A DNA stretch of 64,000 nucleotides from an uncultured Candidatus Saccharibacteria bacterium (GTDB taxonomy: Bacteria; Patescibacteriota; SICC01): NCBI GenBank assembly GCA_964525455.1, contig CAZGHP010000001.1:74739-138738 (forward strand), read 5' to 3'. The notes below the pieces were generated by a model. The model did not search any database and had not been told where the DNA came from. It saw only the letters and a list, made by a program, of their open reading frames with translations. How positions within the stretch are numbered: the stretch's first letter is position 1; the number at the start of each line of letters is the position of its first letter. Both the position numbers and the translations under genes were made by a program. Shown here piece after piece: positions 15,615 to 20,598 of this stretch.

Positions 15615-15639
15615 GTTCTAGACCCGACCGGCGAGCCAT
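15615..15639 (+). repeat. partial copy of dispersed island repeat (GGTTCTAGACCCGACCGGCGAGCCA) overlapping start of lipoprotein gene
   Basis: Matches 5' part of repeat units at 16181 and 17178. Confidence 0.45.
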
Positions 15640-16156
15640 GAAAGAAAAGCTATTGGCGGTATTTGGCTACGCAGTCATGGGTCTGATCGGCCTTGCTGTA
15701 CTTGCCGGCCTTGGCATCTATCTGTGGGGGAGTAGCTATACGTATGATGCGTCGGCAGAGAGCGAGCAGAAGAAGTTACAGGCCGACATGCCAAAAGTCA
15801 AAGCTCAGGTCGAGGAGTGTATCGGCTTCAAGGAATCTGCTGAACTCGCGGGGCGTTCCCGGGGCGAGGCTATAACTAAAAACGGCGGAACACTACCAGC
15901 TACCTTCCGTGCTTCATCAGTAGATCGCACTATTGCTCGATATGAGGCCGTGAAGGCTACTTGTGATCCGCTTATTAAGAAGTATGAGCAGAATTATTCG
16001 AGGCTAGTTCATCTCGCTCAGGAAAGCGCTCGGAATAAGAAGAACGCATTTGAAAAGTGGCTCACTCGTAATGAGAAACCACCCGTGGAAACGTTTCAAT
16101 TCCAGGCGCAGTACAAAGCCTGCTTTCCTGGCTGCCGCACGCAGATTATTCCTTAA
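15638..16156 (+). CDS. membrane-anchored/secreted hypothetical protein
   Basis: N-terminal hydrophobic anchor LLAVFGYAVMGLIGLAVLAGLGIYLW; 172 aa. Confidence 0.5.
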   Translation: MKEKLLAVFGYAVMGLIGLAVLAGLGIYLWGSSYTYDASAESEQKKLQADMPKVKAQVEECIGFKESAELAGRSRGEAITKNGGTLPATFRASSVDRTIARYEAVKATCDPLIKKYEQNYSRLVHLAQESARNKKNAFEKWLTRNEKPPVETFQFQAQYKACFPGCRTQIIP

Positions 16157-16180
16157 TTTTCATCACGCAATAGCTGGAAT

Positions 16181-16286
16181 GGTTCCAGACCCGACCGCCG
16201 AGCCAATAGGGAAGGTTTAGAACCGCCCTCAGAAACCCCTCAACTGTGTCGAATAAGCTGAAATCCAGCCACCAACCCGAGTGCTG
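16181..16286 (+). repeat. dispersed island repeat unit, copy 1 (about 106 bp) ending in T7 run
   Basis: Homologous to 17178-17285: shared GAGCCAATAGGGA(A/T)GG(T)TTAGAACC...AAACCCCTCAAC...ACCAACCCGAGTGCT. Confidence 0.6.
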
Positions 16287-16310
16287 TTTTTTTAAACTAA
16301 CGCCGAAAAT

Positions 16311-16350
16311 CTCTCAACGGCCTTCAAACCATTGGTTCCCAACCCGACTA
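16311..16350 (+). repeat. short island repeat (CTCAACGGCCTT...GGTTCCCAACCCGACT), copy 1
   Basis: Homologous to 17310-17352 and 20558-20598. Confidence 0.5.
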
Positions 16351-16390
16351 ACTTCACTTCAGAATGACCGAGAGCGTATAGTTGGAAGCA

Positions 16391-17454: not shown

Positions 17455-18069
17455 ATGAAGAATCGACCTGCCCTCTATATTGTCCTCGGCTTTGTGATCG
17501 GAATGACCCTGAGCGGAGTTTTCGCTACCATCGCGGTTAACAGCGAGAATAACGGAATGATGGGAATGATGGGAATGCAGCGGGGGAGTATGGCTTCCGA
17601 CCGGCACTTCATCGAACAGATGATCCCGCACCACGACGATGCGGTGAAGATGGCTCGGGTGGCACAGACCCGGGCGGAGCACCCCCAAATCAAGAATCTA
17701 GCCGACGATATCGAGATCACGCAAACGAAAGAAATCGAAGAAATGCGGGAATGGTACCGAGATTGGTACGGAAAGGATCCGGCTACCGGTGGCGTGAGCG
17801 ACCATCACGACATGTCTGGAATGCAAAACGGAATGATGGGCAACTCCAAGGATTTAGAATCTCTTGAGGACGCCAAGCCGTTCGACAAGGCGTTCATCGA
17901 GCAGATGATCCCGCACCACCAAATGGCGGTGATGATGGCCCAGATGGTGCAGCAGACTGCGCGACATGATGAAGTGCGCCAGCTTGCCGGCGACATCATC
18001 GAGGCGCAGAACCGGGAAATCGACCAGATGCGTCAGTGGTACCGAACATGGTACGGGTCAGGAGTATAA
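17455..18069 (+). CDS. DUF305 family protein (metal/copper-homeostasis associated)
   Basis: Two repeats of MIPHH(D/Q)xAVxMA motif typical of DUF305; N-terminal TM anchor; TACAAT box 7 nt upstream. Confidence 0.7.
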
Positions 18070-18121
18070 GCGTGAGCGGCCACAACAGCCACTAGGTCGA
18101 ACCGCCTCACCCCCACCACCT

Positions 18122-20191
18122 ATGCTCTACCGTTGCCCGATGCATCCCGATCAGCAGTCGGAGAAGCCGGGGCTGTGTCTAATATGTGGCATGGACCTGG
18201 AACCGGTAATTACCGGCGAGCAGGCTGGACATGCAGCGCAAGAGCGAGACTCGATGATTCGCCGCCGCAAGGTCCGGTTTTCCAGTTCGGCACTTCTGAC
18301 GCTGGTGGTGATTATATTGTCATTACCGTTTGAGTTGCCGGGCAAACACTACCTGATGCTGGTTTTGACGGCAGTTGTGGTTTTTGGGATCGGGCGAGAA
18401 TTCTTCATCGCGGGTATCCCGGCGTTCGTGAAGAGGGCTCGCCCGAATATGGACACTCTAATTGCCATTGGCACCTCAACCGCTTTACTTTTCAGCGCCT
18501 ACGTCACGTTTACCGGAGGTGAGGCTGTCTACTATGAAGTAGCGGCGGCGATTGTGACGCTAATTCTGCTCGGCCGTTATCTCGAAGCACTCTCCAAGAA
18601 GCGTGCCGGGGATGCCATTACCAAGCTCTTAGAGCTGGGCGCGAAGAAGGCGCGGGTGGTCCGTGATGGCACGGAGACAGAGGTCGATGTGGCAGAAGTC
18701 GTGAAGGGTGATATAGTCCGCGTTCGTCCAGGCGAGAAAATTCCCATCGATGGCATTATTGTCGAAGGGACGTCAGCGATCGACGAATCTTTAGTGACCG
18801 GTGAAAGTATCCCAGTCGAGAAAACTGTCGGGGATGCCGTAATCGGTGCCAGCATCAACCAGGAGGGTTCGTTACTCGTTAGGGTCGAGAAAGTCGGCAT
18901 CGAGACGGTTTTAGCCCAAATCGTGAAGATGGTAGAGGCGGCCCAGACCAGCCAAGCTCCGATTGAGCGGTTGGTTGATACCGTATCTCGCTACTTTGTC
19001 TGGGCAGTACTGGCCCTGGCGGTGCTAACGCTCGTCTTATGGCTGATGGTCGGGAACGTTCCGCTGGCGACCGCCTTCATCTATATGGTTTCGGTGTTGA
19101 TCATCGCCTGTCCCTGTGCACTCGGTTTGGCAACGCCGATGTCGGTGATGGTAGGCACCGGCAAGGGAGCGGAGCTTGGCATCATTATCAAGAAGGCCGA
19201 GGTGCTTGAGAAATCGAAACAGATTACGGCAATTGTCTTCGACAAGACCGGAACGATTACGGTCGGCAAGCCGAAGGTGACCGCAGTGAAAATCAGGCGA
19301 GGGTCGAAGCGGGACGCCCTGGCATATGCCGGAGGCCTCGAATCGCATTCTGAACATCCGTTAGCCCGAGCGATTACCGAGTATGCGAAAAGAAAGAAAG
19401 TCCGGCTGCCGGACGTCACCGGGTTCAAGGCCGTGGTGGGGCAAGGAGTTATCGGCCACATCAAACGAGCTGAATACTTCGTGGGCAGTACCAAGCTGGC
19501 TACGGCGCGGAAGGTACTGGATGATGAGGCTCGAACAGAAATCACCGCGATGGAAGCTGACGGCATGACGGTACTGGTGCTCGGGGATACCAAGGGCATC
19601 ATCGCCGCATTCGGGGTCAAGGATACTCCGCGTCCAGAATCGAAGACGGTCGTGGCGGACCTTACCCGTCGCGGCCTGCACCTCGTTATGCTCACTGGCG
19701 ACAACCGGACGGTAGCCAGGGTAATTGCCGGTGAAGTCGGCATCGAGCACGTCGAGGCGGAAGTCGCGCCCGAAGATAAAGTGCGGGTGATTACCGAACT
19801 TCAGGAAAAAGGATACTTCGTGGCGATGGTCGGTGACGGTATTAACGACGCCCCGGCGTTGACGCAGGCGGACGTCGGCATTGCGATTGGGACCGGCACC
19901 GATGTGGCTATCGAATCAGGGGACATGGTGCTCGTACGAGGAGACATCCGTAAAGCGGCGACGGCAATCAAGTTGTCACAAAAGACCTTCACCAATATAA
20001 AGCAGAATCTTTTCTGGGCATTTTTCTACAATGCCGCTCTCATACCAGTAGCTATGATCGGTAAGATCAACCCGATCCTGGCGGCTGGTGCGATGGCATT
20101 CTCATCAGTAAGCGTGGTTTTGAACGCCGCCCGTCTAAAGCGTCTCCGCATTAGCGAAGACAAGATTGGGGACCACATTGAACCTTCCTAA
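18122..20191 (+). CDS. copA: copper-translocating P1B-type ATPase
   Basis: N-terminal CPMHP...[10 protein letters not shown] metal-binding motif, transduction CPC ([11 protein letters not shown]), DKTGTIT phosphorylation site, [13 protein letters not shown] at 18122 in frame with ORF 17966..20191. Confidence 0.85.
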
Positions 20192-20263
20192 AGTTCTCTA
20201 CCGCGTTTGTTGGGTTATCTTAGCGGCTATACTTATTTATGCATTAATACAAGGGTTAACATC

Positions 20264-20464
20264 ATGAACGCACTTCGTACCGCAAAGTATTCTGAATGGC
20301 TGGCATCCCTATTTGGGGCATGCTTTGTCTCCTTTGGTCTCGGAGCCTGGTTTGGGGAATCGTTCTCAGATCCGCTACTCGCGGTCATTGTGGTAGTCGG
20401 AATCGTGATGCATTCCTGGGGAATGTACCGAATCAACAAGCGCAATGCTGAGCAAGTTAGATAA
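20264..20464 (+). CDS. small membrane protein (2 TM), copper-module associated
   Basis: ATG at 20264 in frame with ORF 20207..20464; hydrophobic helices. Confidence 0.4.
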   Translation: MNALRTAKYSEWLASLFGACFVSFGLGAWFGESFSDPLLAVIVVVGIVMHSWGMYRINKRNAEQVR

Positions 20465-20557
20465 ATAAACTAAATCAGACACTGTACCGGTTCGGAATCA
20501 CTCAACCCACACCTACGAGTTCTGAGATTTTGGTTCGAACATAGAGACACTGAAATC

Positions 20558-20598
20558 CCTCAACGGTCTTGCTGGGGTGGTACCCAACCCGAGAGCTG
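20558..20598 (+). repeat. short island repeat, copy 3 (right boundary of low-GC island)
   Basis: CCCTCAACGGTCTTG...GGTACCCAACCCGAGAGCTGAG. Confidence 0.5.

Follow-up and report, generated by a model that had tools for sequence, protein, structure and literature searches.

What are the short repeats that separate the genes of a low-GC island in an uncultured Candidatus Saccharibacteria bacterium, and how did they come to lie there? The island occupies part of a 64,000-nucleotide stretch of contig CAZGHP010000001.1 (assembly GCA_964525455.1, positions 74,739–138,738), referred to below as the window, and carries a heliorhodopsin gene and a copper-ATPase gene among others. The repeats lie at the junctions of gene cassettes, the island is delimited by the 3′ end of a tRNA-Gln gene and by the last repeat unit, its content differs between near-identical strains, and the arms of the repeat units reassort. 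On balance, we lean towards reading the repeats as attachment (att)-type sites of a tandem, integrase-less cassette array at a tRNA-Gln hotspot, in a high-GC chromosome of the Patescibacteria (Candidate Phyla Radiation, CPR; related to Saccharimonadia). Members of this group have tiny genomes and are mostly uncultured, and gene exchange among them is poorly understood.

A two-layered repeat family at cassette junctions

One repeat family is represented by eight complete or partial copies between positions 15614 and 20602, all on the + strand, with none in the rest of the 64 kb. An earlier reading of the letters and open reading frames (ORFs), here called the sequence-only reading, had reported one composite repeat in six intervals; these were recovered by reading positions 15000–21200 and with a repeat finder, and each holds the repeats described. 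The similarity exceeds chance: the degenerate core GGTWCCMRACCCGA, with at most one mismatch, matches six times (all +, 15614–20592) against 0.28 expected, and none of 100 shuffles reached six matches. The box1 core CCTCAACGGYCTTG is likewise enriched in the window. Self-blastn of every island gap against the window (word size 7) returned no copy beyond 15.6–20.6 kb. The proposal that every intergenic gap of the island contains a copy was too broad, none being present in the gap between the DUF305 gene and copA (18070–18121), in that between copA and the small ORF (20192–20263) or in the left third of the island (12065–15613).

The family is two-layered, composed of 24–25-nt junction units and a leader of approximately 150 nt. 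The junction unit, represented four times in the window (A, B1, C1 and D; Table 1), follows the pattern GG[YW]CC[MR]RACCCGA-N5-GAGC(C)A, in which a left arm (GG[YW]CC[MR]R) is joined through the core ACCCGA to a 5-nt right arm and a terminal GAGC(C)A. The first element of the leaders that follow B1 and C1 is an inverted box2-like stretch, CCAATAGGGAWGG..AGAACC; each leader also carries two more box1–box2 sub-units that lack the GAGCCA tail (B2 and B3; C2 and C3). ACCCGA is the sole sequence invariant across all eight copies. Gaps B (16157–16395) and C (17153–17400) have 79% column identity across about 200 nt, and leader copy B is approximately 80% identical to the leaders of the related loci L048, L049 and L064. 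A further stretch, GAGACACTG(G)AAAT, is conserved upstream of some box1 copies (window 20540–20557, L048 8440–8530 and L002 480–575); in L048 and L002, TGTCTCATTTGTCTC... stands before it and completes the inverted repeat TGTCTCA/TGAGACA.

The GC content of the window is 62–69%, except at 12–20.6 kb, where it is 44–57%. This low-GC island starts at 12065, one base past tRNA-Gln, and ends at unit D, and all its genes are on the + strand. Judged from sequence, contig L049 and the window belong to the same species: on the left flank L049 1–5751 is 98.3% identical to window 6315–12065, where homology stops, and on the right flank homology resumes at 20578 (L049 10802–12882 against window 20578–22658, 98.4% identical). 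Because homology with L049 breaks at these points, the limits of the variable segment coincide exactly with the tRNA 3′ end on the left and unit D on the right. Between them, L049 carries genes for a ceramidase, MauJ, a 385-residue protein, a 2′-5′ RNA ligase and heliorhodopsin, and its heliorhodopsin segment is only 90% identical to that of the window, compared with 98.3% for the flanks. The partition of the island into gene cassettes proposed in the sequence-only reading is thus borne out, with different cassettes between the same end points in a 98.3%-identical strain and homology breaks at the cores. The association with gene boundaries also holds; overlooked in that reading were the start at tRNA-Gln, the GAGC(C)A terminus and the occurrence of the same family in related Patescibacteria.

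The junction units are placed 4–50 nt past the upstream stop codon, compared with 0–240 nt from the next start codon, and their orientation is unchanged in those L049 and L074 cassettes that have genes on the minus strand. Left arms are of the types GGTTCYAG, GGCACCCA and GGTACCCA, right arms of the types CCGSC, CTGGY, CTGCT and GAGCT, and eight combinations are present in 19 units. All four pairings of left arms L1 and L2 with right arms R1 and R2 exist (L1R1 three times, L1R2 and L2R1 once each, L2R2 eight times), and both L2 and L3 are also found with R4. As all four of the L1/L2 and R1/R2 pairings occur, exchange has taken place across the invariant 6-bp core. In arrays that have the heliorhodopsin cassette in common, homology breakpoints lie at −5/+4 nt relative to the cores (window and L048), at 0/0 (L049 and L051) and at +11/+11, the GAGCC terminus (L048 and L051).

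Related arrays and the link to tRNA-Gln

Approximately ten informative contigs were obtained from the contexts of close heliorhodopsin homologs and from one metagenome pattern scan. The units also separate shuffled accessory genes in roughly eight further metagenomic contigs from this Patescibacteria clade, where they are confined to one strand within each locus. L048 contains seven junction units within 8 kb, in an array ordered aldo-keto reductase, heliorhodopsin, MazE-Fic, OsmC-methyltransferase, a 141-aa gene, a 66-aa ORF with an ABC transporter, and BipA; there are four units in L074, two each in L064 and L082, and one each in L051, L062, L073 and L085. No units were seen in the approximately 38 other Saccharimonadia heliorhodopsin loci examined. 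The pattern scan returned 29 loci, mostly single chance matches as expected at about 36 bits, the true relatives among them being L062/68/70, L064, L073 and L074 only. No account of such arrays in Patescibacteria came up in literature searches. A phage origin of the unit was rejected, its pattern having 0 matches in IMG/VR.

L002, from the metagenome-assembled genome Baikal-deep-G193, carries box1–box2 sub-units 5′ of heliorhodopsin, of the gene downstream of the heliorhodopsin pair and of Ham1, with no motif upstream of murB, secE, nusG or rplK. The sub-units are present only before some L002 genes and are therefore not a general promoter; a general CPR promoter is ruled out by these motif-free housekeeping genes together with the motif-free Saccharimonadia loci. 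In the same neighbourhood, a different cassette-flanking pair, a direct repeat of about 33 nt (TCGCAGTTCGAACGTCCTCTATCAAGCCCTGC; L002 ~2650–2690 and ~3470–3500), flanks the gene of a 241-aa nucleotidyltransferase.

At all four intact tRNA-Gln loci (window, L049, L051 and L085), the units lie downstream of the tRNA gene and in its orientation. Genuine 3′ fragments of tRNA-Gln, extending from the T-arm to CCA (26 nt, GGGTTCGAGTCCCTGTCCCCGAGCCA), stand directly before the leader in L073 and L048, whereas in L051 the intact tRNA end itself directly precedes the leader, the position of the junction unit elsewhere. The end of the L049 ceramidase cassette holds a tRNA-Gln remnant, CGTCCCAGACCCGGAGCCA, with a 13/16 match. 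Unit D and the tRNA end have GAGCA and a T-arm-like GGT.C..AACCC in common (14/25), and variants A and B1 alone reach 15–16/25 (p ~0.001), whereas consensus units are not significantly tRNA-like; GAGC(C)A is the only stretch that every unit has in common with the tRNA. Since the consensus similarity is not significant, the case for a link to tRNA-Gln is made by where the units lie and how they are oriented, by their GAGC(C)A terminus and by the tRNA fragments of the relatives.

That the units are plain att duplications of the tRNA-Gln end in the window was rejected, as their cores have no direct match to it; derivation of box1 from the anticodon arm was likewise rejected, similarity to the tRNA being absent past its last ~27 nt. 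Within the L048 array, a segment of about 120 nt (8578–8697) ends in the tRNA-Gln 3′ fragment ATCCCTGTCCCCGAGCCA; ARAGORN calls no tRNA there, even with introns allowed, and the segment is probably a displaced or decayed tRNA-Gln end.

Competing explanations and closest known systems

The junction unit is read as an att-type recombination site because it has its orientation and 3′ terminus in common with tRNA-Gln. Each cassette would keep such a unit at its distal end, and a recombinase of the tyrosine or large serine type, encoded elsewhere, would catalyse cassette entry and exit in trans; the crossover would lie within or next to ACCCGA, at GAGC(C)A, or at both. As insertions followed one another, older cassettes would have been displaced away from the tRNA. 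The leader would be an ancestral segment downstream of tRNA-Gln and upstream of heliorhodopsin, native there in relatives and duplicated along with cassettes, and, to judge by its motifs, probably supplies promoters.

Several observations weigh against att-type sites. No recombinase, integrase or transposase domains were found beside the related arrays, and the search for an empty site through the 121-aa protein of the right flank matched the L049 ortholog only and retrieved none. Of eight sites tested for the dyad symmetry that a recombinase core should show, only two were significant. The consensus unit matches the tRNA-Gln 3′ end at 11–12 of 25 positions, which is not significant and is comparable to other tRNAs, and tRNA-Gln has CCCTGT at the position of ACCCGA. 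The sample comprises about 19 units from about ten metagenomic contigs, and sub-units B3 and C3 lie just 5′ of −10-like boxes, which is also compatible with a regulatory role.

The absence of a visible integrase, already remarked in the sequence-only reading, extends to the approximately 55 plausible ORFs of the window, in which no integrase, resolvase, recombinase or transposase domain was detected. The one hint of a recombinase comes from L048, where a 154-aa Zn_ribbon_recom fragment lies 6 kb away from the array. A palindromic 44-bp site of the serine-recombinase type, formed by the unit and the start of the leader, was rejected, being significant in two of eight sites only.

A regulatory explanation, the main rival, takes box1 and box2 as binding sites of a transcription factor or unusual sigma factor, their similarity merely seeding RecA-mediated shuffling after DNA uptake. 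In its favour, sub-units without the GAGCCA tail (B3, C3, L048 8805, L064, L051 and L002 3835) lie 5–25 nt 5′ of −10-like boxes (CATAAT, TACTAT, TATAGT) that are themselves 6–9 nt from an ATG, a sigma-70-like site is present at 16353–16382, the conservation is bipartite and at the level of primary sequence, as protein binding would predict, and no recombinase was found. However, the GAGCCA-type units follow the upstream stop codon and not the next start, they keep the orientation of tRNA-Gln also in cassettes with genes on the opposite strand, the L002 housekeeping genes lack the motif, and the island limits match the tRNA 3′ end. Reassortment of arms across 6 invariant bp, with breakpoints within cores of 10–14 bp, also involves matches too short for efficient RecA recombination, and this explanation is rather unlikely. 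The related suggestion in the sequence-only reading, that the repeats act as terminator or promoter modules, retains weak support from the sigma-70-like site downstream of B3, but the total of such sites is at chance, and the T7 run that had prompted it (16287–16293), although present after B2, is missing from the paralogous C2 and has no predicted stem-loop terminator. Searches by eye led to the rejection of an ECF (extracytoplasmic function)-type GGAAC-N-CGTT, which is on the minus strand, wrong for the genes, with a spacer of 14–15 nt, of sigma-54 sites, for which the spacing is wrong, and of a sigma-28-like CCGA(C)TAA, which is inconsistent.

The integron-cassette-like and MITE-like layouts envisaged in the sequence-only reading fare worse. 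A miniature inverted-repeat transposable element (MITE) or a repetitive extragenic palindromic (REP)-like element, that is, a selfish or structural intergenic repeat spread within the island, would accord with several copies per locus and with a leader of ~150 nt that has an imperfect inverted box2 at its start and a box2 at its end, for which 12 invariant complementary positions were predicted. It is nevertheless improbable: the other 55 kb of the window hold no copy and those of the island are confined to 5 kb in a single (+) orientation; target-site duplications are absent, the inversion at the leader ends is imperfect, and neither covariation, a stable structure nor a transposase is seen; and the link to tRNA-Gln is constant, the leader always following a GAGCCA unit or a tRNA-Gln 3′ end. 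Least probable is a chromosomal integron, or an attC cluster without integrase (CALIN), for which the co-oriented array of short cassettes with one repeat family and strain-variable content, and the fit of ACCCAAC to the inverse-core pattern RYYYAAC, would speak. The R″/L″–L′/R′ palindrome is missing (RNAalifold predicts 0 pairs in 16 aligned units, with no hairpin and no conserved structure, and no inverted repeats were found inside units), the window has neither intI nor an integrase domain, the cassettes bear −10-like boxes of their own and sometimes several genes or genes on the opposite strand, and the anchor is a tRNA end rather than attI. Pairing in the leader is limited to the inverted and direct box2 copies and shows no covariation. 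Rfam 15 gave no hit in 15550–20700 even at E ≤ 1, and only tRNAs in the whole window at gathering score. With no stem before the T-run either, a structured RNA, attC site or terminator was rejected.

Among known systems, there are published precedents for tandem islands with partial tRNA or tmRNA repeats between them, some members being integrase-less (bioRxiv 10.1101/2020.12.28.424599; PMC3146451; PMC5704250). The tycheposon islands of Prochlorococcus (Hackl et al., bioRxiv 10.1101/2020.12.28.424599) are likewise flexible islands beside specific tRNA genes in a streamlined genome; partial copies of the island tRNA stand between their tandem elements, degenerate remnants have no integrase, and the cargo consists of niche and defence genes. 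Here, by contrast, the host phylum is Patescibacteria, the cassettes are much smaller (0.6–3.5 kb), the separator is a conserved 25-nt unit that is only loosely tRNA-like plus a 150-nt leader, and no hallmark genes (tyrosine or large serine recombinase, replication module) were found in the window or the related arrays. The ssrA islands of Dehalococcoides (PMC3146451) resemble the array in having multiple tandem islands downstream of one small-RNA gene, direct repeats of about 20 bp of its 3′ end, a conserved element-derived motif just 5′ of the repeat that does not align with the target gene, and some members without an integration module, for which cis-mobilization has been proposed. They commonly carry a CcrB-like serine recombinase module and have an exact ssrA direct repeat, however, neither of which is seen here.

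Cis-mobilizable elements (CIMEs) that accrete at tRNA genes (ICESt1/ICESt3 family; PMC5704250) are decayed integrative and conjugative or integrative and mobilizable elements of several kb, from Firmicutes and with a known helper integrase, whereas the modules here contain one to four genes; as CIMEs are defined (att-flanked, without integration or transfer genes), A, B1, C1 and D, as putative att sites, flank modules without recombination genes. Integron arrays and CALINs also have small co-oriented cassettes that each end in a member of a repeat family and vary among strains, but the array differs from them in lacking attC hairpin architecture and IntI and in being anchored at tRNA-Gln instead of attI. 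Islands of the Islander type are defined by a position next to the 3′ part of a tRNA or tmRNA gene, a displaced 3′-end repeat at the distal end, an internal integrase gene, usually beside the tRNA, and presence or content that varies between close relatives (PMC4383910). The array abuts the tRNA 3′ part at the 12064/5 boundary and its content differs in the close relative L049; neither the island nor about 45 other scanned ORFs of the window contained a Phage_integrase, Resolvase or Recombinase domain. In architecture the array matches tycheposon-shaped islands, ssrA islands and CIME accretion, but as it has no recombinase or hallmark module and its repeat is only loosely tRNA-like, it cannot be assigned to any of the three.

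Island content, host and significance

The island comprises four cassettes between tRNA-Gln and unit D (Table 1), the remainder of cassette 4 after its Ham1 remnant spanning 17455–20464 (Pfam, and gene calls for L001). The remnant, from a Ham1/RdgB-like NTP pyrophosphatase gene, came in along with its upstream sub-unit C3; its region is about 80% identical to L002 3810–3950, which covers the 5′ end of an intact Ham1p_like gene (from 3890) and the sequence before it.

Table 1 Features of the tRNA-Gln-anchored island (window coordinates).
Feature	Position	Strand	Evidence or remark
tRNA-Gln(CTG)	11993–12064	+	ARAGORN, Rfam; 3′ end is the left boundary, attL-like anchor
Cassette 1, restriction-modification-like module, 44% GC	12065–15613	+	Pfam, PADLOC, composition
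Z1/ResIII ‘type II helicase’ (cassette 1)	12132–13988	+	Pfam, PADLOC
144-aa ORF (cassette 1)	13981–14415	+	
Type II DNA methyltransferase (cassette 1)	14412–15602	+	Pfam, PADLOC
Junction unit A, GGTTCTAGACCCGACCGGCGAGCCA	15614–15638	+	Final CA overlaps the ATG of the next gene
Cassette 2, 172-aa ORF (‘lipoprotein’ of the sequence-only reading)	15638–16156	+	No family match
Junction unit B1, GGTTCCAGACCCGACCGCCGAGCCA	16181–16205	+	92% identical to A
Leader copy B	16206–16350	+	Inverted box2-like 16209–16224; B2 ~16233–16286, then T7 run; B3 16312–16350
Sigma-70-like promoter candidate, TTCACT-18-TATAGT	16353–16382	+	9 nt 5′ of heliorhodopsin ATG; consensus match only
Heliorhodopsin gene (cassette 3, together with leader B)	16391–17152	+	Pfam PF18761, E = 7e-97
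Junction unit C1, GGCACCCAACCCGACTGCTGAGCCA	17178–17202	+	
Leader copy C	17203–17352	+	C2 ~17233–17285; C3 17313–17352
Ham1/RdgB-like gene remnant, 25 codons, MSTNALDITFITSNQKKAEHYKGLQ followed by two stops	17372–17449	+	In gap C
DUF305 gene (cassette 4)	17455–18069	+	Pfam
CopA-type P1B ATPase (cassette 4)	18122–20191	+	Pfam
66-aa membrane ORF (cassette 4)	20264–20464	+	
Terminal unit D region, box1 AAATCCCTCAACGGTCTTG + GGTACCCAACCCGAGAGCTGAGCA	20553–20602	+	Junction unit D proper 20579–20602; attR-like right boundary

The closest homologs of the heliorhodopsin are in Patescibacteria (88% and 74%). The module at 12132–15602 is defence-like, and the L048 and L085 arrays hold analogous helicase/methylase modules (AIPR, ResIII). 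The DUF305 gene contains direct repeats spaced by 285 nt (17608–17667/17893–17952 and 17731–17771/18016–18056; 78–80% identical), which are a tandem duplication of a DUF305 half-domain, separate from the intergenic family. In several cassette genes, a −10-like hexamer (TATAGT, CATAAT or TACCAT) lies 6–9 nt 5′ of the ATG with no obvious Shine–Dalgarno sequence (window 16376–16393, L048 8847–8860, L064 reverse strand ~1604–1631 and L002 3868–3892), an arrangement that suggests leaderless or near-leaderless transcripts in the clade. Elsewhere in the window, a lone low-GC gene (Metallophos_2, 3328–3846; GC content at third codon positions 0.54, compared with about 0.85 in its neighbours) stands directly after tRNA-His, and the sequence at its stop codon, CACCAAATAGGGGA, is faintly like the GAGCCAATAGGGA junction; the region 3225–3915 may, from its composition and position, be another tRNA-linked mini-cassette.

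The closest named relatives of the window's PcrA/UvrD are in Patescibacteria (72%) and Saccharimonadia (~50%), and the flanking order AI-2E transporter, HAD, tRNA-Gln ... BipA recurs in related CPR contigs. On these grounds, the window belongs to a CPR chromosome of high GC content in which the island is a flexible segment of lower GC; transfer across phyla, from a Saccharibacteria epibiont into a high-GC actinobacterial host, is ruled out by the Patescibacteria-like PcrA. This host of approximately 65% GC encodes PurE, PurC, dihydroorotate dehydrogenase, CTP synthase, phosphoketolase and acetate kinase (for example at 43622–45832, 22381–23852, 24858–28375 and 55907–56878); such a GC content and nucleotide-biosynthesis genes are unusual for CPR bacteria.

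More tentatively, the clade may have a previously undescribed cassette-exchange system, although this is doubtful. In such a system, a chromosomal trans-acting recombinase and a 25-bp site resembling the tRNA-Gln 3′ end, with variable arms around an ACCCGA crossover core, would insert, excise and shuffle promoter-bearing mini-cassettes downstream of tRNA-Gln. Its cargo could possibly comprise heliorhodopsin, copper-ATPase, toxin–antitoxin, restriction-modification and oxidative-stress genes. If this is true, the system would be functionally analogous to integrons, with an origin in tRNA-targeting integration and not in attC hairpins.

For annotation, the array is a warning that intergenic repeats of this kind are neither integron attC sites nor MITEs, and it points to a recombinase encoded elsewhere. 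The 25-bp joint would serve as a sequence tag for the flexible gene pool in CPR metagenomes, and an array of minimal cassettes anchored at tRNA-Gln would explain strain variation in light sensing through heliorhodopsin, copper resistance and phage defence.

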